From an uncultured bacterium (GTDB lineage: Bacteria; Acidobacteriota; Thermoanaerobaculia; Multivoradales; JAHEKO01), in the NCBI GenBank assembly GCA_905479655.1, contig CAJQNK010000123.1:26553-90552 (forward strand): DNA of 64,000 nucleotides. The letters run 5' to 3'. A model generated the notes under the pieces. The model was not told the origin of the DNA and ran no database searches. It saw only the letters and a program-made list of their open reading frames with translations. A program made the position numbers and the translations under genes. Each line of letters begins with the position of its first letter. The stretch's first letter is position 1. Shown piece by piece: positions 1 through 57,927 of the stretch.

Positions 1-1639
1 AGATGGGCCAGGGGCCGCCGAAGGCGGCGAAGATGGCGCCCGCCACCAGGCAGAAGCCTCCGAACAGCGTCCCCCGCAAGCCCGCGAAGGGGTTTTCCGC
101 GGGTCCCCGCGTGCTCTGCTCCAGGAGGCGCAGGCCCTCGCTGATGAGCATCGGCACCTTGACCAGGCTGTCGAGGAGCTCCGGCGCTCCGCGCAGGCTC
201 TCCCGCGCCACCTTCAGGGGCGCGAACCGCTCGAGCAGGATGCGGTTGATGTGCCGCTTCGAGACCTGGGCCACGTCGAAGCCGGGGAGCAGGATCTGGC
301 CCACCCCCTCGAAGGTCACCAGGGCCTTCACCATCAAGACCATCTCCACCGGGAAGTACATCCGGTACTGGCCCCCCTTGGCCACCGAGCGCATGACGAG
401 CTGGCCGAGGGAGAAGTCGTGGAAGCTGGGCCCGCGGGACCAGCGGCGGCAGATGTCCTCGACGTCGCGGCGGAAACCCTTGGGGTCCGAGCCCGGGCCG
501 GACTGCGCCAGCCCGGCCAGGTAGCGGGCGGCGCTCTCCGCGTCCCCCATGACGAGGCAGTAGTAGTAGTAGAGCAGGGAGCGTTTCAGGTCCTCGTCGA
601 AGCGTCCCACCATCCCGAGGTCGATGAAGGCGCAGCGGGGCCCCGGCAGGATCAGCAGGTTGCCGGGGTGGAGATCGGCGTGGAAGAAGCCGTCCCGGTA
701 GAGCATCCGGATGATCGCCTCGGCCCCGAGGTCGACGAGCCTCTCGCGGTCCTCCCGGGCGAGGGTCATGACCCGCGGGTCGTCCGGCTTGATCCCCTCG
801 ATGTACTCCATGCACAGGAGGTTGCGGGTGCTGTGCTCGCGGAAGACCTTCGGGAAGACGACCTCCGGCAGGTCGCCGAAGTTGGCGGCGAAGGTCTCGG
901 CGTTGTCCGCCTCGAGGACGAGATCGGCCTCGCGCAACGTGTAGTCGCAGAACTCGCGCAGGATCCTGCGTGGCTGGAAGCGCGCCAGGAACAGCTCGAG
1001 GAGGCCGCCGAACATGCGCAGGAGGAGGGTGTCGACCTGCAGCAGCTCCCGGATTCCCGGCTTGACGACCTTCAACAGCACCCGCCGTCCGTCGTGGGTC
1101 GTCGCGAGATGGGTCTGCCCGATCGAGGCGGAGCCGAGGGGCCGGGGGTGGACGTAGGTGAAGACCTCTTTGATCGGGCAGCCGAGCTCCGCCTCGAGCT
1201 GCTCTTCGACCTGCTCGAAGGGCACGGCCGGCAGGCGATCGAGCAGGTTCTTCAGCTCTTCGGTGACCTCCCGCGGCAACAGGTCCTCGCGCAGGCTCAG
1301 GATCTGGCCGAGCTTGATGTACGTCGGCCCCAGCCGCTCGAACCGGACCCGCAGTTGCACCGGCAGCGGCTTCTTCTTGAGCTTCCTGTCCACCAGTAGC
1401 CCGGGCCAGAAGATCAGGAAGCGCAGGAGGGCCACGCGCAGGCGGCGGCGCTGGAGACGGGGCAGCGAGCGCAGGTGGGAGGCGAGGCCCCCCAGGGCCA
1501 GGCCGAGGAAGTGTCGCCAGGTCGTGAGCAGCCGGCGCACGGGTCCCGGCGGCAGGCGCCGCCGGGTCACCTCGAGGGTCTCGATCTCCTCGCGCCCCTC
1601 GCGCGAGGGCGGGTCGACCGGCCGGGGTCCGGCGTTCAT
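1..1639 (-). CDS. ubiB: UbiB/ABC1-family atypical kinase (AarF domain); C-terminus runs off window start (partial)
   Basis: Minus-strand translation from ATG (rc of cat 1637-1639) gives ...RFERLGPTYIKLGQILSLREDLLP..., ...YRDGFFHADLHPGNLLIL... and two C-terminal hydrophobic helices; it is the antisense of listed +ORF 251..1399; no stop before the window edge. Confidence 0.8.
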   Translation of the reverse strand, partial: MNAGPRPVDPPSREGREEIETLEVTRRRLPPGPVRRLLTTWRHFLGLALGGLASHLRSLPRLQRRRLRVALLRFLIFWPGLLVDRKLKKKPLPVQLRVRFERLGPTYIKLGQILSLREDLLPREVTEELKNLLDRLPAVPFEQVEEQLEAELGCPIKEVFTYVHPRPLGSASIGQTHLATTHDGRRVLLKVVKPGIRELLQVDTLLLRMFGGLLELFLARFQPRRILREFCDYTLREADLVLEADNAETFAANFGDLPEVVFPKVFREHSTRNLLCMEYIEGIKPDDPRVMTLAREDRERLVDLGAEAIIRMLYRDGFFHADLHPGNLLILPGPRCAFIDLGMVGRFDEDLKRSLLYYYYCLVMGDAESAARYLAGLAQSGPGSDPKGFRRDVEDICRRWSRGPSFHDFSLGQLVMRSVAKGGQYRMYFPVEMVLMVKALVTFEGVGQILLPGFDVAQVSKRHINRILLERFAPLKVARESLRGAPELLDSLVKVPMLISEGLRLLEQSTRGPAENPFAGLRGTLFGGFCLVAGAIFAAFGGPWPI

Positions 1640-1831
1640 GCGAGCACCTGCCCCGGGGGCGTGCGTCGAAGACGACCGAGCGCCCAGGCCCGCGGCGCGG
1701 TTCGAAGTCGACGGGCGCTCGGGTGCCGAAGCTCCCGACGCCGATGGATGCGGCCAGACCCGATCACGGGGCATCTCTCCAGCCGCTGCCCCGCCGGCTC
1801 GGTACCAGCGCCGGGCGACGGCTCGACAAGT

Positions 1832-2869
1832 CTACTCCGAGCGCTCGATCCCCGGCCCCGCCCGAAGGACCAGGGAAGACCAGTGAAAGCCCGCTCCGAA
1901 GGCGGTGAGGAGGACCCGGTCTCCGGCGTGCAGCCGACCTTCCGAACGGGCCTGGTCGAGGGCCAGGGGTACCGAGGCGGAGCCGGTGTTGCCGTACTCC
2001 TGGACGTTGACGAAGACCCGCTCCTCGTCGATCTCGAGGGCGCGAGAGACGGCGCGGAGGATCCTCAGGTTGGCCTGGTGGGGTACCAGCAGGTCGACCT
2101 CGTCGATCGACAGTCCCGCGGCGGCCAGCGCCCGGCGCGAGGAGTCGGCCATCCTGCGGACCGCCTCGCGGAAGACCTCGCGACCGCGCATCACGACGCG
2201 CTGGTGGTCTCCGCGCTGCGCTCCCTCGACGCTGAACGGCAGGCGCGTGCCCCCGGCCTCGAGCGACAGGATGTCGGCTCGCGAGCCGTCGGTGCCGGCG
2301 TCCGAGGAGAGGATCTCGCCGACCCGGCCCCCCTTGGATACGACCGTCGCTCCCGCCGCGTCTCCGAACAGGACGCACGTCTCGCGGTCGTTCCAGTTCA
2401 TGAGACGGCTCAGCAATTCGACCCCGACCACCAGGATCCGCCGATCCGGGTAGGCGGCGACCCGGGACCGGGCCACGTCGACGGCCTGGAGGAAGCCGGC
2501 GCAGCCCGAGCCGGCGAGGTCGTAGGCGGGCACCTCGCCGAGGCCGAGACGCTCCTGGAGGAAGGCGGAGGTGTCGGGGATGTAGACCTCCGGCGTGTCC
2601 GTCGCCACCACGATCTCGCCGATCTCCGACGGCTCCAGTCCGGCGTCGGTCAGCGCGGCGCGGGCGGCCGCCTCGGCGAGGTCGAGTGTCGTCTGGTCGG
2701 CCGCGGCGAAGCGTCGCCGTTCGATTCCGGTGCGCTCCACGATCCAGTCGTGGCTCGTGTCGACCCTGCGAGCCCACTCCTCGTTGGTGAAGATCCGCTC
2801 GGGCACGTAGGAGCCGAGGCCGGCCAAGCCGATGCCCTGCGGCCCGGATGGGGCCTTTGGCTGCAGCAT
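1832..2869 (-). CDS. fabH: 3-oxoacyl-ACP synthase III (KAS III)
   Basis: Listed ORF; Cys-His-Asn triad context (AGSGCAGF, LVPHQANLRI, GNTGSASVP), ~330 aa thiolase fold. Confidence 0.85.
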   Translation of the reverse strand: MLQPKAPSGPQGIGLAGLGSYVPERIFTNEEWARRVDTSHDWIVERTGIERRRFAAADQTTLDLAEAAARAALTDAGLEPSEIGEIVVATDTPEVYIPDTSAFLQERLGLGEVPAYDLAGSGCAGFLQAVDVARSRVAAYPDRRILVVGVELLSRLMNWNDRETCVLFGDAAGATVVSKGGRVGEILSSDAGTDGSRADILSLEAGGTRLPFSVEGAQRGDHQRVVMRGREVFREAVRRMADSSRRALAAAGLSIDEVDLLVPHQANLRILRAVSRALEIDEERVFVNVQEYGNTGSASVPLALDQARSEGRLHAGDRVLLTAFGAGFHWSSLVLRAGPGIERSE

Positions 2870-2908
2870 CGGCGGAGCATAACAACGGCCCGACGGCCGA
2901 GCGGGCTC

Positions 2909-3916
2909 TCAGCTCTCGCCCGAGGGGTCCGCGACGGCCACGACCCGGTCGCTCCAGGCCAGACGCCGCCGTCCCGCCTCCTTCGCCCGGTACAGCGCCA
3001 GGTCGGCTCGTTCCAGCAGTCGCTCCCAGGGCTCGTCGGCCGCGGCCCGAGCGCCTCCCATGCTCACCGTGACGACCACGGGCCGGCCTGCCGTCTCCGG
3101 CCGCAGGCCGCCCAGGGCCTCGAGCAGGGCGCGCGCCCGCAGGACGGCCTCCCGCTCGCCCAGGCCCGGCAGGACCACCGCGAACTCGTCTCCCCCCAGG
3201 CGCGCGGCGATGTCGTCGGCCCGAACGGCGCCCCGGAGCGCCTCCGCGACGAGGCGCAGCACCTGGTCGCCGAAGGCGTGCCCCCAGCGGTCGTTGATCG
3301 CCTTGAAGCGATCGACGTCCACGACGACGAGCGCGAGACTGCGCCCGGGCTCGTCCTCCCGCGCCCGATCCAGCAGGGCTCGGAGGCCGCGGCGGTTGGC
3401 GAGCCCGGTGAGCTCGTCGGTGAGCGCGAGGGCGTGGTGCTGGTCGCGCTCGCGGCGGGTGCGGCGCAGCGAGCCGAGCGTTCGCTCGAGCTCGGTGTTG
3501 CGCGCCCGCAGGTCGTCGATCAGCCGGCGCTCGGAGATCACCAGATAGGCGCAGCAGCGGCGCAGGACACGGAGCAGCACCTGCGGACTCTCGGCCTCCA
3601 GTCGCTCGATGCTGGAGGGGCCGAGCTCGCGGACGGTGCAACCCACCCCGGCCGCCGCATCGGCGGTGCGGCGGTGGGAGCCCAACACCAGGGCGAGCTC
3701 CCCGAACAGCTCGCCGGCCGCGAGCCGCTTCTCGTGCTTCTCGGCGCCGAAGCGCAGGACGACCTCTCCCCCCTCCACGACGAACATGGAATCGCCGTCG
3801 TCGCCGCGGCGGAAGAGGGGCTCGCCGGGCTCGAGATCGCGGGCGACGCCGAGACGGCCGAGAGTGTCGAGAACGTCCGGCGCGAGGCGCAGGTCGGGAG
3901 CTCCGTCAGTGGACAT
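2909..3916 (-). CDS. Cyclic-nucleotide-binding domain fused to GGDEF diguanylate cyclase
   Basis: N-terminal cNMP-binding signature (FVVEGGEV...GELFGELAL) and C-terminal GGDEF domain (RLGGDEFAV, RYGGEEF-type context, ALYRAKEAG). Confidence 0.8.
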   Translation of the reverse strand: MSTDGAPDLRLAPDVLDTLGRLGVARDLEPGEPLFRRGDDGDSMFVVEGGEVVLRFGAEKHEKRLAAGELFGELALVLGSHRRTADAAAGVGCTVRELGPSSIERLEAESPQVLLRVLRRCCAYLVISERRLIDDLRARNTELERTLGSLRRTRRERDQHHALALTDELTGLANRRGLRALLDRAREDEPGRSLALVVVDVDRFKAINDRWGHAFGDQVLRLVAEALRGAVRADDIAARLGGDEFAVVLPGLGEREAVLRARALLEALGGLRPETAGRPVVVTVSMGGARAAADEPWERLLERADLALYRAKEAGRRRLAWSDRVVAVADPSGES

Positions 3917-4255
3917 CGGGCGGGTGGCCGGGTGGGGAAGGTGGAACAGGGGACGAGCGCTGTCGAGCGAGAGGTCGTGCGGGCGTCGGGTCGTTGGTCC
4001 GGGAGGCGGCCTCGACTATACTCCGCGCTTCGGGAGGAAGGTCACCCGGAGGGCCGCGCCAGGGGTGCCCCATGGGATCGATCGAGCCGGTGCGGGGCCG
4101 AGGGACGCCGAGGAGCGACCCGGGGCGGCTCCGCCCGGACGGACGCGATCCGGGGCGGGAGTCGCGGCTCGTTCCTCGAGGGACCTCCGGAGCCTACGGA
4201 CCGTCCTTCGAGCCTCCCTCTTGTCCACTGCGGTCATTTGAACCGAGGAGATTCC

Positions 4256-5905
4256 ATGTCGGAGCGACCCAACTCCATCTGCCCATCCGGAGAGAGCTTC
4301 CCCCTGCCGGACGTCGACGACTACCACGCAGAGTTCGAGCGTCTGAAGGCGCTCGCCACCGAGAATCGCCGACAGGGACGCGAGGTCGTCGTCGTCGTGG
4401 GCGTCGGCTTCGTCGGCGCCGTGATGGCCGCCGTGATCGCCGATGCGGAGCACGAAGACGGGACCCCATCCAAGTTCGTCCTGGCCATGCAGCGGCCCAG
4501 CGTGCGCAGCTACTGGAAGATCCCGCTGCTCAACCGCGGTCTCTCGCCGGTCAAGGCCGAGGATCCGGAGGTCGACGAGATGATCCAGCGCTGCGTCGTC
4601 GACAAGAGGACGCTGGTGGGCACGTTCACCCACGAGGCGCTGCGCCTGGCCGACGTCGTCGTGGTCGACGTCCAGTGCGACTATCTCAAGGAGGAGTTGG
4701 GGAACGTGCGCAACGGCGCCGCGGATCTCGAGGCGCTCAAGGCCTCCATGGCGACGATCGCCGAGAACGTCGAGCCGGACGCCCTGGTCCTGATCGAGAC
4801 GACGGTCCCGCCGGGCTTCACCGAGAACGTGGCGTTCCCGATCATGAAGCAGATCTTCGACCATCGGGGCATCCTGTCGGATCCGCTGCTCGCCCACAGC
4901 TACGAGCGCATCATGCCGGGCCGCCAGTACGTCTCGTCGGTGCGTGACTTCTGGCGGGTCGCGAGCGGCAACAACGCCGAGGCGCGGGAGCGGGTGACCA
5001 CCTTCCTGCAGGAGGTCCTGAACACCGAGGAGTACCCGCTGACGGTCCTCGACCGGCCGCTCGAGTCCGAGACCGCCAAGATCATCGAGAACAGCTACCG
5101 CGCGACGCTCCTGGCCTTCATGGACGAGTGGTCGACCTTCGCCGAGCGCCAGGGGATCGACCTGCGGAAGGTGATCGAGGCGATCAAGGTGCGGCCCACG
5201 CACTCGAACATCATGTTCCCCGGCCCCGGCGTCGGCGGCTACTGCCTGCCGAAGGATGGCGGCCTCGGCGTGTGGGCCAACCAGCACATCCTCGACGACG
5301 AGGACGGTCCCTTCCGCATCACGCCGATCGCGATCGACATCAACGACCGGCGGGGCCTCCGGGTGCCGATCCTGGCGGAGGAGGGTCTGGCGGCGTTGGG
5401 GCGCTCGATCTCCGGAGCCGAGGTGGCGGTCCTGGGGGCGGCCTACCGCGAGGACGTCGGCGACACCCGCTACAGCGGCTCGGAGATGGTGGTGCGCAAG
5501 CTCGCGGAGATGGGCGCTCGAGTGCGGGTGCACGACCCGTATGTCGAGTCCTGGGCCGAGTTCGAGACCCAGGACACCTACCCCCAGTCCCGCCACAGCT
5601 GGGCCCGTTTCTTCGACGGGCAGGAGGGCCTCTCCGAGCTCGTGGTGCAGTCCGATCTCGACGCGGTGCTGAAGGGCGCGGACGTTGTCGTCCTGGCCGT
5701 GCGGCACCAGGCCTACCTCGACCTCCAGCCGGACGACATGGTGCGCCGGGTCGGCCAGCCCTTCGCCGTGGTCGACTGCTTCTGCATCCTGTCCGACGCG
5801 GGGATCAGCCGTCTCTTCGAGGCCGGTTGCGAGGTTCGGGGTCTCGGCCGCGGTCACGTCCACCGGTTGCGCGACGAGGTCCGGCGGCGGGCGGAGGAGA
5901 GTTAG
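4256..5905 (+). CDS. UDP-glucose/GDP-mannose dehydrogenase family (nucleotide-sugar dehydrogenase)
   Basis: Real gene is the 3' part of the 1476-aa ORF 1475..5905; ATG at 4256 preceded by GAGGAG; Rossmann GVGFVGAVMAAVIA and catalytic GGYCLPKD. Confidence 0.85.
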   Translation: MSERPNSICPSGESFPLPDVDDYHAEFERLKALATENRRQGREVVVVVGVGFVGAVMAAVIADAEHEDGTPSKFVLAMQRPSVRSYWKIPLLNRGLSPVKAEDPEVDEMIQRCVVDKRTLVGTFTHEALRLADVVVVDVQCDYLKEELGNVRNGAADLEALKASMATIAENVEPDALVLIETTVPPGFTENVAFPIMKQIFDHRGILSDPLLAHSYERIMPGRQYVSSVRDFWRVASGNNAEARERVTTFLQEVLNTEEYPLTVLDRPLESETAKIIENSYRATLLAFMDEWSTFAERQGIDLRKVIEAIKVRPTHSNIMFPGPGVGGYCLPKDGGLGVWANQHILDDEDGPFRITPIAIDINDRRGLRVPILAEEGLAALGRSISGAEVAVLGAAYREDVGDTRYSGSEMVVRKLAEMGARVRVHDPYVESWAEFETQDTYPQSRHSWARFFDGQEGLSELVVQSDLDAVLKGADVVVLAVRHQAYLDLQPDDMVRRVGQPFAVVDCFCILSDAGISRLFEAGCEVRGLGRGHVHRLRDEVRRRAEES

Positions 5906-5933
5906 CGAACGGTCGCCCTGGTAGGCTCGTACC

Positions 5934-7577
5934 GTGCGGAGGCCCCGGAGAGGTAGCGCAGCGGTTGTGAGGTGGATCCGGGGCTGCGTCTGGATCGCGC
6001 TGGCGCTCGTTGCGGCCGGCGCCGCGGCGGAGCCTTGGCCGTCGCCCATCCTCGGCGACGGTCCGCTGGGGCGTTGGGCACGACCCCGCGTCCTGCGGGA
6101 CGCCCCGGTGCCGGTGCCGTCGCCGCCGGGCGATCTCTGGACCCCGTCCGGGCCCCCGGGGCCTCCCGGGCCACCGCAGCCACCCCCGGGCCCCGTGCCG
6201 CCCCCCGGTCCGGCGCCACCGCCCGGTCCGGGGGGCGACCCGCCGCCCGGCGCGCTGCCGGCGTTTCCCGGAGCCGAGGGGTTCGGCGCCACGACGCCGG
6301 GTGGGCGAGGGGGGAAGACCCTCTTCGTCACCCAGCTGGGGGATTCCGGCCCCGGCTCGCTGCGGGAGGCGCTGCGGACCGCCGGCCCGCGGACGATCGT
6401 CTTCCGGGTCGCCGGGGTGATCCGGCTGACGAGCCCCGTCTACCTGGGGGGCGCCCCGGCGGAGCCGGCGACGCCGGAGGAGCACAGCTTCGTCACCGTG
6501 GCGGGCCACTCGGCTCCCGGCGGCGGGGTCACGATCGCCGACGGCTCGCTCATTCTGCGCAACGGGGTTCACGACGTCGTGCTCCGGCACCTGCGCTTCC
6601 GCAACGCCCGGCGGTCGATCGACGCCGAGCCGCGCTCACCCGGGGACGGGATCGACCTGCAGACGGCCTCGCGGGTGGTGGTCGACCACTGCTCGTTCTC
6701 CTGGGCGACCGACGAGAACTTCAGTGCCGAGCGGTTCGTCAACCGGGACGTCACCGTGCAGTTCAGCCTGGTGGCGGAGGGTCTGGCCGACGGGGGACAC
6801 GAGGCCGGCGTCCATAGCCGGGGGATGAACCTCAGCCGCGGCGCGGACCGCTTCTCCGTGCATCACAATCTCTTCATCGCCAACAACATGCGCAACCCGC
6901 ACCTGAACGGCTGCAACGGCAACCCGGCTTGCGCGCTGAACCCCGAATGGTCCGTGGCGCCGGTCTTCGACGTGCGCCACAACGTCGTCTACAACTGGTC
7001 GCGCCGGGCGAGCCACCTGTCGTTCGGAGCGCGGGCGAACCTCGTCGGCAACCTCTACCTCCCGGGCCCCTCGACGCCGAGGGGATCGCCGCCGATCTAC
7101 TTCCAGGACTCGGACCGGGGAACGGAGGCGTGGGTCGAGGGCAACGCCAGCGAGGCTCTCCCCGGGGCGCCGCAGGTGGATCTGGTGGGCTTCATGGAGC
7201 CTCCCCTCACGGGTCTGCTCCCGGCGCCGATCCCGGCGCCGTTCGTCTCGCCGACGCCGGTCGAGCTCCTGGAGGAGCTCGTGGCGGACGCCGTGGGCGC
7301 CCTGCCCCGCGACTCGGTCGACCTGAGACTGCTCTCCGACCTCGCCGAGCGTCGGGGCGCCTCCGGAGCCCCGGGGCGGACCCACGACACGCCCCTGCCG
7401 ACGCCGACGCTCGGTACGCCCTACGAGGACACCGACCAGGATGGCATGGAAGACGCCTGGGAGCGGGTCCAGGGTCTGGATCCCCTGGACCCGGCGGACG
7501 GGGTGGGGGATCTGGACGGAAACGGGTACTCGAACCTGGAGGAGTTCCTGGAGAGCCTGATCCAGCCGACGGCCTGA
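5934..7577 (+). CDS. Secreted pectate-lyase-like protein (PL1-type fold) with Pro/Gly-rich collagen-like linker
   Basis: AFPGAEGFGATTPGGRGG N-terminal pectate lyase signature and VVVDHCSFSW; signal-peptide-like WIALALVAAGAAA; alternative GTG start at 5967. Confidence 0.7.
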   Translation: MRRPRRGSAAVVRWIRGCVWIALALVAAGAAAEPWPSPILGDGPLGRWARPRVLRDAPVPVPSPPGDLWTPSGPPGPPGPPQPPPGPVPPPGPAPPPGPGGDPPPGALPAFPGAEGFGATTPGGRGGKTLFVTQLGDSGPGSLREALRTAGPRTIVFRVAGVIRLTSPVYLGGAPAEPATPEEHSFVTVAGHSAPGGGVTIADGSLILRNGVHDVVLRHLRFRNARRSIDAEPRSPGDGIDLQTASRVVVDHCSFSWATDENFSAERFVNRDVTVQFSLVAEGLADGGHEAGVHSRGMNLSRGADRFSVHHNLFIANNMRNPHLNGCNGNPACALNPEWSVAPVFDVRHNVVYNWSRRASHLSFGARANLVGNLYLPGPSTPRGSPPIYFQDSDRGTEAWVEGNASEALPGAPQVDLVGFMEPPLTGLLPAPIPAPFVSPTPVELLEELVADAVGALPRDSVDLRLLSDLAERRGASGAPGRTHDTPLPTPTLGTPYEDTDQDGMEDAWERVQGLDPLDPADGVGDLDGNGYSNLEEFLESLIQPTA

Positions 7578-7728
7578 GCCGATTTGCGCCGACTCGCCCT
7601 AGCTAGCCGCGCTGCGGCAAGAGGGCCAGGAAGGGGTGGGCGGCGTCCGTCCCGCGACGCGATGGCGGCTGCGAACTCCGCCTCCGCCGCTTCGCGGCAG
7701 GATTTCCCGGAGAGATCCCGAACGATCG

Positions 7729-7758
7729 CTTGTGAATTTCGTCACAAGGTCGTATACT
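7729..7758 (+). promoter_or_regulatory. Sigma70-like promoter: -35 TTGTGA (7730-7735), 17-nt spacer, -10 TATACT (7753-7758), overlapped by the perfect inverted repeat CTTGTGA-N6-TCACAAG (7729-7748)
   Basis: Read directly in a ~50% GC island inside a 70% GC genome. Confidence 0.45.
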
Positions 7759-7764
7759 GCGTTC

Positions 7765-7987
7765 AACAAGGAGCTCAGAGAGTTCCATGACGAGAACCGA
7801 CAGGAGGTCTCTCTCACCCACGCAGTTCCTTCCAACGCAGGACGGAGGCGCCTCGCGCTTCCGACCCACCGACACCATCCTGCCTGATTCCCCTTTACCA
7901 GGGGTAAATCCGAGACTTCCCACCACCTAGGCAGGGACCTCCATTCTCGCCTTGCGGGGCCGCGATTCGTCGCGGCCTTTGCCTTTT
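7765..7987 (+). ncRNA. Candidate small transcript (~220 nt) between promoter and terminator; contains a 47-codon ORF at 7787..7930 with upstream AAGGAG
   Basis: Promoter at 7730-7758, terminator at 7958-7987; the ORF MTRTDRRSLSPTQFLPTQDGGASRFRPTDTILPDSPLPGVNPRLPTT uses rare codons (AGA, AGG, TTA, GTA, AAT), so either a non-coding RNA or a small protein is possible. Confidence 0.3.
7958..7987 (+). terminator. Rho-independent terminator: 8-bp GC stem GGCCGCGA/TCGCGGCC with UUCG tetraloop, followed by TTTGCCTTTT
   Basis: Read directly from sequence; a second 9-bp hairpin GAGGGCCGG...CCGGCCCTC follows at 7988-8021. Confidence 0.6.
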
Positions 7988-8039
7988 GAGGGCCGGCCGG
8001 CGCGCGCGTCGTCCGGCCCTCTTCGTGTCCGCCCGCCGC

Positions 8040-10184
8040 TCAGGGACGCGACCAGGCCCGGGCCAGGGGCGCCACGGCCGGCGCGCCGTCCACGCCGGAC
8101 AGGCGCGACGCCGACGCCGCGGCGCTCTCGAGGGCGCGCGCGGCCTCCACGCCGCCGCGGCCCGTGCGCAGCAGGGCGATCCCGCGCCAAAGGTCCACGG
8201 TCCCCCGCCCGAGGCCCGGCCCCGACGGCGGCTCCAGGGTGCCGAGACGGTCCGCGGCGGCGTCGGGGCGATCGGCCCGGAGGAGGACGAGTGCGCGCAG
8301 CAGCTCCGTGAGCCAGGGGGAGGCGGTGGTGACCTCCGGGGTGTCCGGGCAGGCGAGGACGGCCCACAGGGCCGGGTCCGGCGGACCCCCTCCGTCGGCC
8401 GGGACCAGGGTCGGCACGGGGACGGGAAGCAGTGTGCGGGGGGTCCGGACCGGGCCGCGATGGGTGTCGAGGGTGAGCTCGCCGGCGCCCTCGGCGACGA
8501 GGCTGCGGAAGCTCTCCAGGGTTGCGGGGAGATCGCCCACGGCCGCGATCCGGTCGCCCGGCGCGAGGCCCGCCCGGGCGCCGGGGCCCTCGGCGGCGAC
8601 CGCCACCACCCGCAGGCCGTCCTTCCCGGGGATCTCGACGAGATCGACACCCGTCCACGGAGTGGAGAAGACGATCGGCCGCTCGAGCTCCCGGAGCCAC
8701 GGGGCCTTCCCGGTGCGCGAGTCGATGGCGAAGCGCCGGTGCCAGGGTCGGGCCGGACCGGGTCCTGCCGACCACAGCCACAGGTCCGCCACGTCGGCGT
8801 AGGGCGCTCCGCGCACGGTCACGAGCAGGTAGGCGGAGCCTCCCACCTCGGAGTCGAGGCGGGCCTGCAGGGCGGTCCAGCCGTCGCCCGGGGGTGGCAG
8901 CGCGGCCACGCGCCACGGCTCGTCTCCGAGATGCGCCCAGTCGATGGTCTCGAGACCGAGGGCCGGCTCGGGCTGGCCGTCGTCGTCGGCGGCGGAGGAG
9001 AAGAACCAGCGCTCGGAGCTCCCCAGGTTCTGGGCGATCTGGCCCGCGAGCTCGATCCCCGCGACCCGGTCCTCACCCCCGAAGCCCAGGAACACGAGGG
9101 ACGGGCGCAGGCGCACCAGGAGCCCGACCTCCTGGCGGTCGGCCAGCGGCACCAATCGGCTCCAGGCGCCGCGGGCGCCGGCGCGCACCTCCAGGCGGTA
9201 GCTCCCCGGCGCCAGGGTCAGGACGGCGTCGGCGCCGTCGCCGTGGGCCACGCGCTGTCCGTCGAGGGTCAACGACGAGCCCTCGGGGATGTCGGCGACG
9301 ACGATCCGGCCCCGCGCCGGCTCGAGGACGATCGCCGGTAGACGGTAGTCGGCGAGGCGGTCGAGACGCAGGGCGAGGGTCCGCGGGCGATGACCCGGCG
9401 CCGAGACGGTGACCCGATGGGCGCCGAGCTCGACGGCGACGAGGCGTTCGCCGTTCGCCGAACCTGCGCCATCGCCGGCGGGCGCGCCGTCGACCCGGAC
9501 GGTCGCGCCGGCCGGTCGGACCGAGAGAGACAAGGTCGGAGCGACGCGCTCGAGGTCGGCCTTCAGGACCTCGTCCGCGCTCGCTCCGACGGTGATCCGC
9601 TCCTCGAGAGGCAGGAAGCCGGGGCGTTCGACCCGCACGAGGCGCTCCCCCGCGAGCAGGGGGACCTCGGTCCGCCCGCTCTCGATCTCGACACCGTCCA
9701 CGAGCACCCGGGAGTCCGCCGGGCCGACGCGCAGGATCAGCCGGCCCACCGAGGAGGCTCGCAGGTCCTCGAGGGTCGAGACCAGCTTGGGGGAGACCCG
9801 CTCCTCGTCCAGGCGGAAGCCCGGGTCGATCGTGAGCAGCGTCGCGAGGTCCCGGCTCGCGGCGGGCCCGTCGCCCAGGTTGAAGAGGGCCTCCGAGCGC
9901 AGGGCGAGAGCGCGGGCCAGGATCTCGAGCAGGGCCGGGTCCTCGGCGGTGGCCACGGCGTCGCCCGCGAGCTCGTCGATCACCCGGGAGAGCAGCGGGA
10001 TCGACTCCGGCTGGTCGACCGAGCGGAAGCGCGCCATGGCCTCGTCCATCGAGCTCCGCATCTCGCTCTCGAGGTCCCGCTCCAGGTCCTCGACGACCAT
10101 CTGCCCCCGGACCGGCGGGGGCGCCGAGGCCAGCCCGGCGAGGACGGCGAGGAGAGCGAGCAGGAAGGGCAGCCGGGTCGTCAT
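8040..10184 (-). CDS. Secreted multidomain protein: signal peptide, TPR-like region, three PEGA-like domains, PDZ domain
   Basis: C-terminal 715 codons of the listed 1220-aa ORF; real start ATG at 10184 (MTTRLPFLLALLAVLAGLASA signal peptide) forms an ATGA overlap with the upstream stop; PEGA-like LILRVGPADSRVLVDGVEI...; PDZ-like GLRVVAVAAEGPGARAGLAPGDRIAAV. Confidence 0.7.
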   Translation of the reverse strand: MTTRLPFLLALLAVLAGLASAPPPVRGQMVVEDLERDLESEMRSSMDEAMARFRSVDQPESIPLLSRVIDELAGDAVATAEDPALLEILARALALRSEALFNLGDGPAASRDLATLLTIDPGFRLDEERVSPKLVSTLEDLRASSVGRLILRVGPADSRVLVDGVEIESGRTEVPLLAGERLVRVERPGFLPLEERITVGASADEVLKADLERVAPTLSLSVRPAGATVRVDGAPAGDGAGSANGERLVAVELGAHRVTVSAPGHRPRTLALRLDRLADYRLPAIVLEPARGRIVVADIPEGSSLTLDGQRVAHGDGADAVLTLAPGSYRLEVRAGARGAWSRLVPLADRQEVGLLVRLRPSLVFLGFGGEDRVAGIELAGQIAQNLGSSERWFFSSAADDDGQPEPALGLETIDWAHLGDEPWRVAALPPPGDGWTALQARLDSEVGGSAYLLVTVRGAPYADVADLWLWSAGPGPARPWHRRFAIDSRTGKAPWLRELERPIVFSTPWTGVDLVEIPGKDGLRVVAVAAEGPGARAGLAPGDRIAAVGDLPATLESFRSLVAEGAGELTLDTHRGPVRTPRTLLPVPVPTLVPADGGGPPDPALWAVLACPDTPEVTTASPWLTELLRALVLLRADRPDAAADRLGTLEPPSGPGLGRGTVDLWRGIALLRTGRGGVEAARALESAAASASRLSGVDGAPAVAPLARAWSRP

Positions 10185-11692
10185 TCGATCACCACCACTC
10201 CCCGCAGGCCGCGGTCCGCGATGTACAGACGGCCGGCGCCGTCGACGGCGAGGTCCTGGGGCGCGTCCAGCCGGACGCCGCCCGGAAGATCGGGGCCGAG
10301 ACGCTCCAGGAGCTCGCCGGAGGCCGAGTAGACGCCGACGCTCCGGGAGCCTCGGTCGAGCACGTAGACGTTCGCGGCGGAGTCCACGGCGAGGGCGGCC
10401 GGTCGCTGGCCCACGCCGAGCGCGACGGTGCCGAGGGCCGACCCGTCCGCGGCGAAGCGCTCGACGGCGGATCGTTTCCGGTCCAGCACGTAGAGGCAGC
10501 CGGCGACTCCCGCGGCGACGTCCGCCGGCTCCGTGCTCGTCGGCGAGACGAGGTCCCGGGGAGTCGAGCCTGGCGAGGACGGGAACAGCGTGACCCGGCC
10601 GCGGCCCCAGAGGACCGCGACGGCGCCCGCCCCGGAGGGCGCTCCAGCCTCGAGGTCCGCGGCCTGCCGATCGGGTCTCGCCGGGTCGGCCAGGGCGGTG
10701 TCCTCGGCCGGGTTGAGGGAGAGGAGGGCGTCGCCCGCGGCGAGCCACGCCGCACCGTCGGCGCCCCAGAAGGGCCGTCCGGAGGGCAGGTCGTCGCGCC
10801 GCGCGGCGATCCGTCCGCCGTCGTCGAGGACGAGGAGGGCGTCGAGCGATCGGTCGCTCACCAGGAGTCGCCCCTCGTCGTCGACGGCGACGCCCTCCGG
10901 TCTCCGGAGCTCCGCGCCCAGGACCCGCGCCGTCCTCCATCGACTCTCGCCGGCCAGGGGGCGGACGACCAGCCTCTCGACCAGGGCGAGTCTCCGCCCG
11001 GCTCGCGCCGCCTCGCTGCCTTCGGCCCCTCGGTCGCGCACGCTCTGCAGGTGCCGGGCCGCGTCGGCCCACTCGCCCCGGGCCAGGAGGATCTCGGCCA
11101 GGCCGACGGCGGCCCGCTCCGACCAGGGTGAGGCCAGGGTGTCGAGAAGCGCCGCGGCGAAGGCCGCCTCGGCGGCGAGCGAGTCGCCGAGCCGACGGTC
11201 GATCTCTCCGATCCGCACCTGGGCGGCGACGCGCCAGGGGAGCCCGGGCCAGCGGCCGACGGGGTAGGTTTGGACGACCTCGCGAAAGCCGCGGCGGGCC
11301 GCCTCGAGGTCGACGCCGGAGCCCACGGCCTGGAGGTCGAGGTCCGCGACCAGCCACCGCGCCCCGGCCGCCCACGGTGTCTCGGGCTGGACCCGGGCCA
11401 GCTCCGCGGCGCGCCGTCTCGCGGCGTCCCGGAGCCCGAGCCGACGCTCGACGTGGGAGGCCTCGAGGCTGGCGGCCGCGGCCGTCGGCCCGTCCCCGTC
11501 GCCCGCCAGATCGACGTAGGCGCGCAACGCGTCGTCGAGCCGCCCCGCGTCCGCGAGCCGCGCGGCCGCCTCGAGGGCGCGTTCGCCGGCCGGTGGCAGG
11601 GCACGGGCGCCCTGGCCCGACCCCAGCGCCAGGAGCACCGTCAAGAAGGCCAACCCGAGGCGGCCGGGGAGGTGCCGGAGGAGAGGCGTCAT
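10181..11692 (-). CDS. Secreted TPR plus NHL-repeat (six-bladed beta-propeller) protein
   Basis: Start MTPLLRHLPGRLGLAFLTVLLALG (ATG at 11692, ATGA overlap with upstream stop); NHL-like blades (LYVLDRKRSAVERF, VYVLDRGSRSVGVY, LYIADRGLRGVVVIE). Confidence 0.75.
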   Translation of the reverse strand: MTPLLRHLPGRLGLAFLTVLLALGSGQGARALPPAGERALEAAARLADAGRLDDALRAYVDLAGDGDGPTAAAASLEASHVERRLGLRDAARRRAAELARVQPETPWAAGARWLVADLDLQAVGSGVDLEAARRGFREVVQTYPVGRWPGLPWRVAAQVRIGEIDRRLGDSLAAEAAFAAALLDTLASPWSERAAVGLAEILLARGEWADAARHLQSVRDRGAEGSEAARAGRRLALVERLVVRPLAGESRWRTARVLGAELRRPEGVAVDDEGRLLVSDRSLDALLVLDDGGRIAARRDDLPSGRPFWGADGAAWLAAGDALLSLNPAEDTALADPARPDRQAADLEAGAPSGAGAVAVLWGRGRVTLFPSSPGSTPRDLVSPTSTEPADVAAGVAGCLYVLDRKRSAVERFAADGSALGTVALGVGQRPAALAVDSAANVYVLDRGSRSVGVYSASGELLERLGPDLPGGVRLDAPQDLAVDGAGRLYIADRGLRGVVVIE

Positions 11693-12753
11693 CCGCCCGC
11701 ACCCCCGCCCGTGGCGGAGACGACGAAACGCTCGGTCTCCGGCGTCACCTCGACCTCGACCGTCCGCTGGGCGCCCAGTTGGTCCCAGACGAAGGTGAGC
11801 TGGTGCGAGCCGAGGGGCAGGGCGACGTCCGCGGGCAGCCAGTCGATCTCCCGGCCGTCGACGGACAGCCGGCAGCGGCTCGGTTGCGCCATGACCCGTA
11901 CGGTGACGACCCCCGGCAGCCGGAGGTCGCGGGTCTCGTTCGGCGCTAGGTCGAGGGTGAGGCGCTCCTCGTAGACGACGGAGGCGCTGCGCAGCACCAC
12001 CTCGCGCCGGCCGGGCTTGAGGGAGATGGCCTGTCGGCCCTCGACGTTCCAGGTCTGGCCGCCGGTGGTGAGGCGGACCGGGAAGGGCGCGTGGACCACC
12101 AGGGTGGCGGGTAGGACGACCTCGCGCAGCGGGAAGAACAGCTCTCGCTGCTCGCGCTGGGAGTCGCGCAGGTCCGCGAGACGAAAGGTGAGGCTCTCTT
12201 CGTGAAAGTCTGCGAGCTCGATTCTCAACCGATGCCTGGCGTCGGGGTCGAGCGCCACGGTCAGCGGCGTGACCCCCGGGAGGTGCTGGTCGCCGAGGTA
12301 GACGGTGGCCCCCGCGGGCCGGCTGACGACGCGGAACTCGACCGGGGGGCGTTGGAGACGGGGCACCCAGCGCTCCGGCAGGCCGGGACCCACCTCGACC
12401 TCGCGCTCGGCGACGATCTCGCCGTCGCGCACCAGGTAGATGCTCGCCGTCCGTCCCTCGGGCCCCTCGAGCTGCACGGTGGTCGGCGTCGTGCCGCGGG
12501 TGGACCCGTCCACGAGGATCTCGACCCCCGTGGGGTCGCTGGAGACCTCCAGGGGCCAGGTGGCGACGGCCGGGGGCTCCGGCTCCGGACGGGAGAGTGG
12601 TGGAGCCGCGAACCAGGCGGCCAGGCCCAAGGCGGCGAGGATGCCGATCGCCGCGACCCAACGTCCCAGCCGCGGCGGCCGGCGTCGGGGGCGCTCGGAT
12701 CCGCGGCGGGTCGGCCGGGACGAGGTCGAAAGCTCCAATTCGTCGATGTTCAA
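11689..12753 (-). CDS. Single-pass membrane protein with periplasmic PEGA domains
   Basis: Arg-rich N-terminus, TM helix WVAAIGILAALGLAAWFA, PEGA motifs (VEILVDGSTRGTTP, ATVYLGDQHLPGVTP); TTG start at 12753 (no in-frame ATG); start uncertain. Confidence 0.6.
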   Translation of the reverse strand: MNIDELELSTSSRPTRRGSERPRRRPPRLGRWVAAIGILAALGLAAWFAAPPLSRPEPEPPAVATWPLEVSSDPTGVEILVDGSTRGTTPTTVQLEGPEGRTASIYLVRDGEIVAEREVEVGPGLPERWVPRLQRPPVEFRVVSRPAGATVYLGDQHLPGVTPLTVALDPDARHRLRIELADFHEESLTFRLADLRDSQREQRELFFPLREVVLPATLVVHAPFPVRLTTGGQTWNVEGRQAISLKPGRREVVLRSASVVYEERLTLDLAPNETRDLRLPGVVTVRVMAQPSRCRLSVDGREIDWLPADVALPLGSHQLTFVWDQLGAQRTVEVEVTPETERFVVSATGGGAGG

Positions 12754-12923
12754 GGGCCTCTCCAGCGGCTCATCATAGCGTCCGCGTTCCGCTCTCGGGC
12801 CGGGGCCCGGGGGTCTCGGCCTGGGGTATCCTTCGCGACGTTGCCTCGACTGATTTTCCCGAAGCCGGCGTTCCCGCCGATCTGCCGGCGCCGGTGACTC
12901 CCGATTCGGAGGTCTCTCCCCCC

Positions 12924-14180
12924 GTGTCCGATCCTCGTTCAGGTCGTCGTATCGCGCTGCTCTGCCAGCACTTCTATCCCGAACTGATCTCGACCGGCAT
13001 GCACATGACGGAGCTGGCCGAGAGCCTGACGCGTCTCGGTTGGCAGATCACCGTCTTCTGCGCCCAGCCGACCCTGGATCTCGAGGGGAAGAGCGAGAAG
13101 GTGCCCCGCGAGATCGAGCACGAGGGGGTCCGCGTGCTGCGGGTCTCCGCCTGGGGCTCGCACGGCGCCGGCCTCGCCGCCCGGCTGGCGTTCGCCGTCA
13201 CCTACCTGCTGTCGACCCTCGTGGCCGTCTTCCGCCACCGCCGTTCGTTCGATGCGGTCCTGGTGACGACCAACCCGCCGTTCCTGGGCCTCGTGGGGCG
13301 CATCCTCCGGCTCGTCGGGGGGCCGCCCTACGCCGTCATCGTGTACGACGTGTACCCGGACCTGGCGGTGCGGCTCGGCGTCCTCGGCCGGCGCTCTCCC
13401 GCGGCCTGGCTCTGGGAGCGCGTCACGCGGACGATCCTGAAGGGGGCGGCGAGCCTGGTCGTCATCGGCCGGGACATGGAGAAGCTGATCCGGGGCAAGC
13501 TCCCGGCCCGGCTCCACGGCCTCACGACCCTGATCCCCAACTGGTCCGACGAGAGCCTGGTGCGGCCCGTGCCGCGCGACGAGAACCCGTTCCGGGCGGA
13601 GCACGGTCTCCAGGAGCGCACCGTCGTCCAGTACTCGGGGCGCATGGCGCGGACCCACAACCTGGAGCCGCTCGTCGAGGCGGTGGAGCACCTGCGGGAT
13701 CTGCCGATCACGGTGCTCATGATCGGCGACGGGGCCAAGAAGAAGGTGTTGCAGCGCATCGCCGAGGAGCGGGGGCTCGACAACGTCATGTTCCTGCCGT
13801 ACCAGCCGCGGGAGCACCTGCACGAGGTGCTGTCGGCGGCCGATCTGGCGGTCGTCTGCCTGGGGAGCCGCTACACGGGGGTCTCGGTGCCCAGCAAGAC
13901 CTACGGCATCATGGCCGCCGGCGTGCCGATCCTGGCCTTCGTCGATCGGGAGAGCGAGATCGGCCTCGCCGTCGAGGAGGAGGCCTGCGGGTTCGTGCTG
14001 CCCGATCCCACCCCGGAGGGCGTCGCCGAGCTGTTGGCGGGTCTGGCCGCCGAGCCCGAGCGTCTGGAGGCCATGGCGGCGGCGAGCCGCCGTGCCTTCG
14101 AGTCGAACTACACCCTGAGCCTGTCGGCGCGGCGCTACTCGGAGATGCTCGAGCGGGTGATCGCCGGGGGGACGGAGTGA
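12924..14180 (+). CDS. Glycosyltransferase family 4 (GT-B)
   Basis: GTG start at 12924 after GGAGG; N-terminal IALLCQHFYPE, C-terminal GT4 E-x7-E region (PSKTYGIMAAGVPILAF); the 5' part of the listed ORF 12597.. is non-coding. Confidence 0.8.
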   Translation: MSDPRSGRRIALLCQHFYPELISTGMHMTELAESLTRLGWQITVFCAQPTLDLEGKSEKVPREIEHEGVRVLRVSAWGSHGAGLAARLAFAVTYLLSTLVAVFRHRRSFDAVLVTTNPPFLGLVGRILRLVGGPPYAVIVYDVYPDLAVRLGVLGRRSPAAWLWERVTRTILKGAASLVVIGRDMEKLIRGKLPARLHGLTTLIPNWSDESLVRPVPRDENPFRAEHGLQERTVVQYSGRMARTHNLEPLVEAVEHLRDLPITVLMIGDGAKKKVLQRIAEERGLDNVMFLPYQPREHLHEVLSAADLAVVCLGSRYTGVSVPSKTYGIMAAGVPILAFVDRESEIGLAVEEEACGFVLPDPTPEGVAELLAGLAAEPERLEAMAAASRRAFESNYTLSLSARRYSEMLERVIAGGTE

Positions 14181-15235
14181 GACTCCTGGTGACCGGCTCG
14201 GCCGGTTTCATCGGCTCGGCGCTGGCGCCGCTCCTGGCCGCCGCCGGCCACCAGGTGGCGGGCGCCGACCGCCGGAGCGGAGACGGCCTGGGCCTGGAGC
14301 GCCAGGTACGGGGGGATCTCCTGGATCCCTCGGTCCTGGAGGATGCCCTCGACGGCCCCGATCCCGAGCGGAACCCCGGGGTCGACGCGGTGCTGCACCT
14401 GGCGGCCGCCAAGGACGACTGGGGACTGGCCCCGGAGGAGTTCCATCGCGACAACATCGAGCTGACGGAGAAGCTGGTGGAGTCCGGTGGACGTCGGGGT
14501 GTCGAGAGCTGGATCTTCCTGAGCACGGTCGCCGTCATCGGGCCGAGCTCGGAGGCCGCGACGGAGGAGACCCCGGCCGAGGCCACCGACCCGTACGGGG
14601 GCTCCAAGGTGGCCGGCGAGCGCCTGTTTCGGGAGCTGGCCCGGCAGGACCCGGCGGTGCGGGTCGGAGTCCTCCGACCCTCGATCGTCTACGGCCCGGG
14701 CAACTACCCCTACACGAACATCTACCGCCTGATCGAGGCGCTCCACACCGGCCGCTTCGTGATGATCGGGCGGGGGGAGACGCTGAAGACCTTCTCCTAC
14801 GTCGAGAATCTCAACGCGGCCACCGTCTGGCTCCTGGAGCACCTGCGCCCAGGAGTCCAGACCTACATCTGCGTCGACGAGCCGCGGCTCACGACCCGCC
14901 ATCTCGTGGACCGGCTCTGCGACCTGCTCGGCCGCCGCCCGCCCCGTGCCTACCTCCCGCGGTGGATCGCCGAGCCGCTGGCCTGGCCGGCCGACCTGGC
15001 GGCCCGCTGGACCGGGATCAACTTCCCGATCACGGCGGCTCGGGTGCGCAAGTTCTGCACGCCGACCAACTACGATCCGGCGGCGCTCCTGGCCGCCGGT
15101 TTCGACCCCCCGGTGGACAACGACGAGGCCCTCCGACGGACCGTCGAGTGGCATCTCGCGGAGCGGGAGCGACTTCGGGGCCTGCCGCGGAAGAGCGACC
15201 TGCCCGGGCATTCGGACGGGCACTCGGACGTCTGA
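14177..15235 (+). CDS. NAD-dependent epimerase/dehydratase (SDR family)
   Basis: GTG start overlaps the GT4 stop (GTGA); LVTGSAGFIGS Rossmann motif and YGGSK catalytic Tyr/Lys. Confidence 0.8.
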   Translation: MRLLVTGSAGFIGSALAPLLAAAGHQVAGADRRSGDGLGLERQVRGDLLDPSVLEDALDGPDPERNPGVDAVLHLAAAKDDWGLAPEEFHRDNIELTEKLVESGGRRGVESWIFLSTVAVIGPSSEAATEETPAEATDPYGGSKVAGERLFRELARQDPAVRVGVLRPSIVYGPGNYPYTNIYRLIEALHTGRFVMIGRGETLKTFSYVENLNAATVWLLEHLRPGVQTYICVDEPRLTTRHLVDRLCDLLGRRPPRAYLPRWIAEPLAWPADLAARWTGINFPITAARVRKFCTPTNYDPAALLAAGFDPPVDNDEALRRTVEWHLAERERLRGLPRKSDLPGHSDGHSDV

Positions 15236-15431
15236 CGGCTCCCGCCCCGGCGCGGAGGGGTTCGTGGCCGTTCGTGTCATACTCTCGGCTCGCCTCCCAG
15301 TTCCCAGGAGCTCGCCGCGGTCGCCGGAACGGGCCGCGGAGATCGACGACCCCGGTGCGGGCCGCCCGGGCCGCCGCCTTCGGGCGCGGATCCTCGCGCG
15401 GCGGGCCCGCGCCGAGAGAGGAGTGAATCCG

Positions 15432-15833
15432 ATGAAGAGTGCGAACCGGGCCACCGTACCCGCCCTGGCGGGCGTCCTTCTCGCGGTCCTGCTCGCCGGG
15501 CCGCCCGTGGGGCTGCCCGGGGGGCCGTCCGCGTCGGCCGCCGTGCCGAGTGCCCCGATGCTCACGGACGCGCAGGTGGACGCCCTGTTGCTGGCGGCCG
15601 AGGAGCTCGCGACCGACCTCCACGAGCTGCGCTCGCTGCCGCGCGACGCCGAACATGCCGAGCGGATCCTGGCGGCTCGGGAGCGGGCCGGCCGCAGCCT
15701 GGAGTCCCTGCTCGAGGCCGCCGGCCTCACGAAGGAAGAGCTGACCCGGCTGATCGACGCCGGCAGCGTGCAGAGGAGCGTGGAGGAGACCGGTGAGCCC
15801 ATCTTGCGCCCTCTCGACGACGCTCGGCGCTAG
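15432..15833 (+). CDS. Small secreted hypothetical protein (133 aa)
   Basis: ATG after GAGAGGAG; signal peptide MKSANRATVPALAGVLLAVLLAG; Ala/Leu-rich helical remainder. Confidence 0.5.
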   Translation: MKSANRATVPALAGVLLAVLLAGPPVGLPGGPSASAAVPSAPMLTDAQVDALLLAAEELATDLHELRSLPRDAEHAERILAARERAGRSLESLLEAAGLTKEELTRLIDAGSVQRSVEETGEPILRPLDDARR

Positions 15834-17806: not shown

Positions 17807-17970
17807 GCGCGAGGGGCGACCGGGGTGTCGGGCCGGTCGCGGCCGGTCGACCCTCGCTGCTCCGCCGCCGGTTGTCTTGGTAGACTTCCCCGACGTCTGA
17901 CACTCTCCTGACGGGCGATGCCTACTTTCCCCCAGAGTGTCGGGCGCACGGTGCTCGGAGGAGTTGCGCG

Positions 17971-18651: not shown

Positions 18652-18703
18652 TGCTGCCGAACCGCAGCCTCGAGGCCTCGGGCCCCGTGACGGAGATCGC
18701 GCG

Positions 18704-38683: not shown

Positions 38684-38732
38684 CGGGGGTACCTCCGGGC
38701 GGGGCGGACGAGTATAGCCAGCCTGCTCGAGG

Positions 38733-52006: not shown

Positions 52007-52084
52007 GGCACGGGTCCTCTCTGGGGGTGGGTCGCTTCGACGCAGGCAACGACTTCCCGCACGGTACTCTCGGCCGGCTTCCCT

Positions 52085-54217: not shown

Positions 54218-54517
54218 CCTCTGCTCTCGGCGTCGAGGGGTTCCGTCGGGCTCGGGCGAGCGCGCCGTCGGACGCGGAAGCGGGCCACCCGGCGGACGGG
54301 CGCCGATTATACCCGGGGGCCCGAGACCGCCTCGAAATAGAGCTTTCGTTCCTCTCCCTTTGTTTGGTAAGGTTGTTCAATTCCTGAGAACCGGTCGACG
54401 CGATGTAGGTGATCCGCTACCGCTGCCCGAGTCCTTCGCGGAGGACGGGGGTGATCCGGACCCTCCGGAGTCGAGTGCCCTGCCGCGCCGACCACCCTGA
54501 GAGAAAGAGGAGGCTCC

Positions 54518-57793: not shown

Positions 57794-57927
57794 CTCCACG
57801 GAGTCGTCGATCCGGCGGGTAGCGTTCGCACCCGTCGGAGATCGAGGCGTCGGGCCGTTCACGGCCCGGCGCCTCTTCCTTTTCGCGCGTTCGGGTACCG
57901 CGGGGGCCGTGCTACGCTGCCGCCGCT

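Follow-up and report, generated by a model that had tools for sequence, protein, structure and literature searches.

Locus and outline of the putative transcription unit

The 64,000 nucleotides (nt) analysed here (hereafter, the window) stem from an uncultured bacterium of the acidobacterial lineage JAHEKO01 (Thermoanaerobaculia, Multivoradales; assembly GCA_905479655.1, contig CAJQNK010000123.1, positions 26,553 to 90,552) and contain, between a pectate-lyase-like gene (stop at 7577) and a convergently oriented gene for a PEGA/PDZ protein (stop codon 8040–8042), an intergenic spacer with a candidate gene for a small regulatory RNA. A preliminary description of the sequence had outlined a spacer of approximately 460 nt, the center of which falls to a guanine-cytosine (GC) content of about 50 % as compared to about 70 % for the surroundings, and had assigned to it a promoter with an operator palindrome, an open reading frame (ORF) of 47 codons and an intrinsic terminator. 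All of these elements were located, and the measured values agree well, with a spacer of 462 nt and a GC minimum per 100 nt of 0.51 (7700–7799) as compared to 0.714 window-wide; the lowest-GC 150-nt stretches in all 64 kb also fall within this spacer. The next gene past the unit is convergent (stop 8040) and no downstream gene lies on the same strand, which argues against the unit being a leader.

Relatives of the PEGA/PDZ protein are scarce, and the closest one (53 % identity) is encoded on a contig, L001, of a metagenome (DRR333436; PMC13032477) that stems from a landfill-leachate reactor. The gene order is the same there, comprising a UDP-sugar dehydrogenase gene, the pectate-lyase-like gene, a spacer of 456 nt, and the convergent PEGA/PDZ gene, as is also the case on contig L025. 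The flanking proteins of the window and L001 share 53 %, 71 %, and 83 % identity, and the third codon positions of the flanking genes are 52–68 % identical. Within the spacer, identity to L001 is 46 % upstream (7578–7714), rises to 84 % in the promoter/operator (7715–7759) and 80 % in a 5′ block of the RNA, drops to 52 % (i. e., the neutral level) in the RNA center, and is again high in a 3′ block (86 %) and the terminator (76 %). The diverged upstream spacer next to a conserved promoter, conserved RNA blocks, and a conserved terminator points to selection on the outlined unit and to none upstream of it, and the shared position between the same genes implies that the unit predates the split of the two organisms. 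Synteny in a relative, a check that the preliminary description had proposed, is thus given, and the postulated discrete unit of approximately 220 nt is supported in that precisely the span from promoter to terminator is conserved, while the upstream spacer is not. Judged from its sequence, the island of low GC content very probably constitutes a genuine transcription unit in its own right, which extends over approximately 220 nt from promoter to terminator. Two further contigs were discarded as additional members, namely L016, which represents the same organism (100 % identical), and L026, which is too short.

Promoter and putative operator

A consensus scan placed a sigma-70-type promoter on the + strand (7730..7758), consisting of the −35 hexamer TTGTGA (7730–7735), a 17-nt spacer, and the −10 hexamer TATACT (7753–7758), which would set the transcription start near A7765. 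Both hexamers and their spacing are identical in L001. TTGTGA-17-TATACT is the sole sigma-70-like match in positions 1–20000, for which shuffled sequences give approximately 0.4. While site and sequence are as previously described, the claim that this is the best such match in the window does not hold, as its score of 9/12 is equalled by three other sites (22102, 27615, and 49142). For the minus strand of 7000–8600, the same type of scan returned no site that resembles a promoter.

The −35 hexamer is overlapped by the perfect palindrome CTTGTGA-ATTTCG-TCACAAG (7729..7748, not assigned to a strand), which also covers most of the promoter spacer. Both arms are identical in L001 and one change is found within the 6-nt center. 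The suggestion that the palindrome is a repressor site is strengthened by this conservation of both arms and by its overlap with the −35 hexamer, as would be expected of an operator. Among the CRP/FNR regulators, those of the CRP subgroup have the consensus site TGTGA-N6-TCACA. The palindrome contains a perfect 16-bp site of this kind near the core promoter (7731–7746, extended to a 7+7 palindrome), which remains without a second match in the window even if one mismatch is allowed. The center of the box precedes the predicted start by approximately 26 bp, a position that fits repression rather than class I or class II activation. Conceivably, a dimer of the CRP/FNR family would bind to this box and occlude the −35 hexamer and the spacer, which would block RNA polymerase and keep the promoter off, so that the RNA would be transcribed only while the signal of the regulator is absent. 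Precedents for such CRP-type control are provided by two small RNAs, as the transcription of Spot 42 is repressed by CRP (PMC8916003) and AzuCR is likewise CRP-repressed (PMC8915982).

Just 5′ of the −35 hexamer lies a further conserved block (GAGAGATCCCGAACGATCGC; 7710..7729, + strand), in which 17 of the 20 bases are identical in L001 and which may constitute a second protein-binding site. Three genes upstream of the unit, a protein combining a cyclic-nucleotide-binding with a GGDEF (diguanylate cyclase) domain is encoded on the minus strand (2909–4015) and could be of interest in view of the CRP-type box; this gene is absent from the otherwise syntenic locus of L001 and L025.

Terminator

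The unit ends with an intrinsic terminator (7954..7987, + strand) that is composed of a stem of 10 pairs (7956–7979), a UUCG loop, and the tail UUUGCCUUUU. The respective scan, which covered bases 1–60000, revealed just one other intrinsic terminator with a long stem. In L001, two one-sided changes are found, and the loop-closing pair A-U has been replaced by G-C, a compensatory change. The stem and tail therefore match the textbook terminator of the preliminary description and are conserved, but the notion of a UUCG tetraloop has to be dropped: the loop is closed by A-U instead of C-G and reads UUCU in the homologue, and is thus not a conserved C(UUCG)G tetraloop. A second GC-rich hairpin (7988..8021, not assigned to a strand; inverted repeat I3 with 17-nt arms that are 88 % complementary) follows between this terminator and the PEGA/PDZ stop codon. 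It is retained in L001 (76 % identity) and probably serves as the terminator of the convergent PEGA/PDZ gene or as a back-up terminator for the small RNA.

Predicted fold and unpaired C-rich stretches

The predicted transcript (7765..7987, + strand; ∼221 nt) is rich in C and poor in G, with a GC skew of −0.37; the 222 bases of 7764–7985 include 82 C and 54 G. Its minimum free energy of −84.6 kcal/mol corresponds to a z-score of −3.46, and a similar z-score was obtained for the L001 copy (−3.41). Independent folds of the two copies furnished the same architecture, which consists, in this order, of a 5′ hairpin, the closing helices P1 and P2, a central hairpin, the helices P3 and P4 with an apical hairpin, an unpaired 3′ stretch of 18 nt, and the terminator. 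All shared pairs (49/49) are kept in both copies, and none of the 8 substitutions at paired positions is disruptive; these amount to 2 compensatory and 4 one-sided changes.

The 5′ hairpin, GGAGCUC-AGA-GAGUUCC (7770..7786, + strand), is predicted to sequester the GGAG that resembles a Shine–Dalgarno (SD) sequence and ends right before the AUG; it is retained in L001, where the closing C-G pair is replaced by U-G and the loop is one base longer. The 5′ arms of P1 (7791–7796) and P2 (7803–7809, GGAGGUC), together spanning 7791..7809, are invariant between the copies and pair in both folds with the 3′ arms of P2 (GACCUCC, 7936–7942) and P1 (UUCUCG, 7944–7949), which lie within 7936..7949. The variable center (7814..7873), the part that matches the neutral benchmark, includes a hairpin (7843–7863) that recurs at this position in both folds despite the diverged sequence, with one compensatory and one one-sided change. 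It is followed by an apical domain (7879..7935) that comprises P3 (7879–7885 with 7929–7935), P4, and the hairpin CCCCU-UUACC-AGGGG (7890–7904), and the sole indel of this domain (3 nt) is situated in the hairpin loop. Within the same domain, the stretch CGAGACUUCCCACCACCU (7911..7928) is single-stranded in both folds, differs from L001 by three transitions only, and is a candidate seed.

Each of the three long unpaired stretches carries CCCAC(C), the other CCCAC motifs being located at 7817 and 7865. For CCCACC, the counts are 2+2 in the window and L001 copies as compared to approximately 0.3+0.2 in shuffled sequences, a comparison in which the motif was picked after viewing the sequences. 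According to the folds predicted for both copies, two long-range helices would close the RNA on itself and thereby bury the SD-like sequences and the AUG, while three C-rich, G-poor single-stranded CCCAC(C) stretches would be displayed. In the model that fits best, by analogy with known systems, these might act as redundant seeds that pair with G-rich sites, for example, the ribosome-binding regions of target mRNAs.

RNA or protein

The AAGGAG (7768–7773) and the 47-codon ORF (7787..7930, + strand; MTRTDRRSL...PRLPTT) of the preliminary description are both present, and the distance of 13 nt between the SD-like sequence and the AUG is long. In the predicted fold, both are base-paired, by the 5′ hairpin and P1. 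The GC content of the ORF by codon position is 0.53/0.64/0.66, whereas the genes of the window reach 0.82–0.96 at third codon positions (GC3). The substitutions relative to L001 are distributed flatly over the three codon positions (13/10/15), and the differing codons comprise 9 synonymous and 15 non-synonymous ones. Moreover, conservation does not end with the stop codon of the ORF but extends into 7931–7955 and the terminator. No gene is called at the ORF in the gene lists of the L001 and L016 assemblies. The search for homologues of the peptide, which had been proposed as a check, came back empty, with 0 matches for the 47 amino acids (aa) among 1.84 billion representative proteins (not even the peptide itself), and no Pfam or NCBIfam match was obtained either.

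The choice between a small RNA and a small protein, which the preliminary description had left undecided, thus leans toward RNA on account of the composition, the flat substitutions, the paired SD and AUG, and the missing protein homologue, even though the frame of the ORF is retained. We favor non-coding over coding by roughly three to one, and the ORF is probably not translated. A type I toxin–antitoxin system is not indicated, as the peptide, in which Pro, Thr, and Arg abound, is hydrophilic and devoid of a hydrophobic stretch, and the minus strand lacks a promoter-like site. Likewise, a leader-peptide attenuator would call for a co-directional gene past the terminator, where a convergent one is found.

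Interpretation and alternatives

Taken together, we interpret the unit as an independent gene, passed on vertically and controlled by a transcription factor, whose product is a regulatory non-coding RNA of approximately 221 nt, a reading to which we assign a probability of about 60 %. Several observations weigh against it. In L001, an ORF of 48 codons is kept whose start and stop codons match those in the window and whose 3-nt indel leaves the frame intact, and the synonymous differences in its own frame (9/24) exceed those in the other five frames (2–7). Only two members of the family, in the window and in L001, are sure, and covariation with two sequences is not significant, given that 112 of 500 shuffles score at least as high. 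A duplex-energy scan for targets in the window and L001 yielded GC-driven duplexes at background level only, none of which is shared. As to the regulator, no member of the CRP/FNR family was found among the 34 window proteins scanned, and at least one TGTGA-N6-TCACA match (up to one mismatch) is present in 46 of 100 shuffles of the 64 kb. Such a match is therefore not rare by chance, and the palindrome is noteworthy because of its position and conservation, not because of its count.

The main rival is a dual-function RNA that would combine a base-pairing small RNA with a Pro/Thr-rich peptide of 47–48 aa, in the manner of SgrS/SgrT, Spot 42/SpfP, or AzuCR. We consider this possible but clearly improbable. 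The start and stop codons shared by both copies, the indel that preserves the frame, and the excess of synonymous codons over any other frame (9 synonymous as compared to 15 non-synonymous differences) all speak for such a peptide, as do size, promoter control, and terminator, which are like those of known dual-function RNAs, two of them CRP-repressed. However, 47 stop-free codons are expected at approximately 0.3 by chance in C-rich sequence (our own base-composition estimate), an in-frame indel has a chance of 1 in 3, and the synonymous excess is small (9 against 6–7); the GC3 of 0.66, the long distance between a paired SD and a paired AUG, and the lack of a protein homologue add to these objections. 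Somewhat less probable still is a plain small-protein gene, in which protein constraint together with mRNA structure would account for the nucleotide conservation. The retained ORF and the upstream AAGGAG are in line with this idea, and the identity in the variable center (0.52/0.62/0.38 by codon position, our own count) follows the rank order typical of coding sequence, which is, however, not significant (21 codons, chi-square ∼2.4, our own count). What chiefly decides against it is that the 5′ and 3′ blocks are near-identical even at third positions, as compared to 52–68 % in the flanking genes, which argues for constraint at the RNA level; furthermore, conservation runs past the stop codon into 7931–7955 and the terminator, the GC content by codon position is that of non-coding sequence, gene call and homologues are missing, and the peptide has no hydrophobic or other recognizable feature.

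Given a non-coding RNA, proteins rather than mRNAs could be its partners, as in a sponge displaying repeated CCCACC motifs, a C-rich Rho-binding RNA, or a 6S-like RNA. One short motif in three single-stranded stretches, a GC skew of −0.37 that resembles Rho-binding sites in composition, the strong promoter, and the stable fold would suit such a role, for which we see about as little probability as for the plain small protein: merely 2–3 copies of the motif are present, where known sponges have many more, no match to 6S, CsrB/Rsm, or any other family was obtained at E-values up to 10, and the fold does not show the defining trait of 6S RNA, a rod with a central bubble. Horizontal acquisition, which had been suggested as possible in view of GC content and codon bias and would make the island, for example, the relic of a phage or mobile element, was largely refuted by the comparison of sequences and is very improbable. 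Admittedly, nowhere else in the window does the GC content fall as low, and the codons of the island are atypical, but it occupies the same position between the same neighbors in a relative with 53–84 % identical flanking proteins, is not bordered by repeats, has no mobile-element gene nearby, and has no plasmid or phage match, viral contigs giving only chance seed matches. A sufficient reason for low GC content in a genome that owes its high GC content mainly to third codon positions is that a promoter and a non-coding RNA escape the pressure on GC3. The slimmest chance of all is left for a leader-peptide attenuator whose read-through would act as antisense transcription into the convergent PEGA/PDZ operon. 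The distances would be suitable, with the ORF stop 26 nt before the terminator stem and the convergent operon 50 nt beyond, yet neither fold offers an alternative anti-terminator pairing, the second hairpin past the terminator suggests insulation rather than read-through, and the peptide lacks a run of a single regulatory amino acid.

If the unit is indeed a non-coding RNA gene, an uncultured lineage gains a delimited candidate regulatory RNA with coordinates for promoter, operator, structure, and terminator as well as a second copy. Should the CRP-type box be functional, it would tie a cyclic-nucleotide-type signal to post-transcriptional control in this lineage. In more general terms, low-GC islands in high-GC genomes can flag RNA genes rather than foreign DNA, of which the present unit is a clean example. 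Since lineage-specific small RNAs are common, the find is of moderate weight.

Family searches

The comparison with Rfam, which had been proposed for the island, produced no family match. None of the 4227 models of Rfam 15 matched at the gathering score in the whole window, and searches of the region and the L001 copy at E-values up to 10 returned only noise at the level of hairpins. The best sub-threshold scores fell on the palindrome and terminator hairpins only, namely 19.8 bits for mir-4005 (threshold 80), 19 bits for PtaRNA1 (threshold 47), and 28.4 bits for ncS54 (threshold 43, in L001). ARAGORN found nothing. Scans for further copies were similarly unproductive: all 6 matches of CCAGGGGTAAATCCGAGA in JGI metagenomes and all 8 matches of GGTAAATCCGAGANNNCCCACC in 185,579 species-representative genomes were chance, two scans of viral contigs gave chance matches only, and a scan with the PEGA/PDZ protein revealed no relative among the contigs of species-representative genomes.

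Contigs with homologues of the PEGA/PDZ protein (L002, L009–L011) or of the pectate-lyase-like protein (L012–L015, L027, L028) are not syntenic and contain no convincing copy. On L002 (GCA_041576855.1), a 5S rRNA-like gene was recognized by eye directly after the PEGA/PDZ homologue (8314–8440, minus strand as fetched), which suggests that the neighborhood downstream of PEGA/PDZ is conserved only in the closest relatives. Downstream of the distant PEGA/PDZ homologue on L011 and before rpsL, short tandem repeats (GTGCGAAGTGCAAAGTG...) were noticed (8700–8900), the reverse complements of which (CACTTCGCACT...) occur approximately 170 nt further on.

A candidate third member was considered on L013 (GCA_974013605.1, contig CDAREK010000027.1; 4590–4726, + strand), where an intergenic element precedes a pectate-lyase paralogue by 275 nt. 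It is low in GC, rich in C (skew −0.46), and stably folded (z −3.47), lacks an AUG, and is followed by a pyrimidine tract of approximately 50 nt; it resembles the core of the window RNA in CCUCC(C)GUUUC and in the stem of the apical hairpin (UUCCCCU...AGGGGU), and three CCCACC motifs are present. The element was nonetheless kept as a lead only and not counted as a member, as it scored 13.2 bits where noise on unrelated DNA reached 14.1 bits, with P values of 0.115 and 0.01 from sequence only. Covariation counts that include L013 and the model R2 are circular and were not used as evidence. Most likely, the window and L001 contain the two sure members of a previously undescribed small RNA family that is of a known general kind. 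That the unit represents the founding member of a new class of C-rich RNAs with CCCACC repeats, linked to pectate-lyase-like genes, under CRP-type control, with the L013 element as a candidate divergent third copy, and either dual-function (a regulator together with the 47-aa peptide) or capturing a protein or G-rich RNA sites by means of the repeats, is a more speculative idea that we regard as rather unlikely.

Comparison with known systems

Among known RNAs, Spot 42 (spf, Enterobacteria) shares several traits with the window RNA, as its gene stands alone, is equipped with a sigma-70 promoter and an intrinsic terminator, and contains a small ORF that was long deemed irrelevant. It differs in length (109 nt as compared to ∼221 nt), the Rfam scan gave no match in sequence or structure, and the organism considered here is unrelated and has a high GC content; furthermore, the CRP-type control of the window RNA is a proposal based on the DNA box. 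AzuCR and other dual-function RNAs are alike in having a regulated promoter and a terminator, transcripts of approximately 160–230 nt, and ORFs of 28–43 codons. For AzuCR, SgrS/SgrT, and SR1/SR1P, however, translation is proven, whereas the evidence leans against it here, and there is no homology.

In RsaE/RoxS (Firmicutes), 6C RNA (Actinobacteria), and CcsR or “cuckoo” RNAs (Alphaproteobacteria), short unpaired C-rich motifs pair with G-rich ribosome-binding sites. The window RNA resembles them in that several short C-rich motifs are located in unpaired regions, but the motif is CCCACC instead of CCCC or CCUCCUCCC, no match was found at E-values up to 10, and the RNA, closed by long-range helices, has approximately twice their length; pairing with targets is proposed for it by analogy. 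Finally, 6S RNA is also structured (∼180–200 nt), driven by a strong promoter, and paired between its 5′ and 3′ parts. The fold predicted here is multi-branched instead, with approximately 70 nt of the 5′ side between P2 and P3 opposite no bases of the 3′ side, and the 6S models of Rfam gave no match at E-values up to 10 in the window region or L001.

Other features of the window

The database model of the pectate-lyase-like protein (gene at 5934–7577, + strand) comprises 460 aa with a start near 6195. A GTG at 5934 would add an N-terminus that resembles a signal peptide and aligns with the 553-aa homologue of L001, and the database start is thus probably mis-called. With a start at 5934, the gene would begin 28 nt past the stop of the UDP-sugar dehydrogenase gene, which suggests an operon. 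The UDP-sugar dehydrogenase itself is approximately 70 % identical to proteins from many phyla.

The other long-stem terminator found in bases 1–60000 (57844–57875, + strand; 14 pairs followed by UUCCUUUU) overlaps the open frame 57823–60063 in its upstream part and is situated just past a large unannotated gene (54455–57793) without a Pfam match. The second-lowest-GC intergenic stretch (54290–54450) is T-rich (TTTCGTTCCTCTCCCTTTGTTTGGTAAGGTTGTTCAATTCC) and lies between two divergent genes (52085–54376 on the minus and 54455–57793 on the + strand); it is probably a divergent promoter region. Four proteins with sulfatase domains are encoded in the 64 kb (36431–38782, 50120–52084, 52085–54376, and 57823–60063), two of which are fused to TPR repeats. 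Together with the pectate-lyase-like gene, a glycosyltransferase gene, and PEGA/NHL genes, these sulfatases suggest a lifestyle that is centered on polysaccharides.

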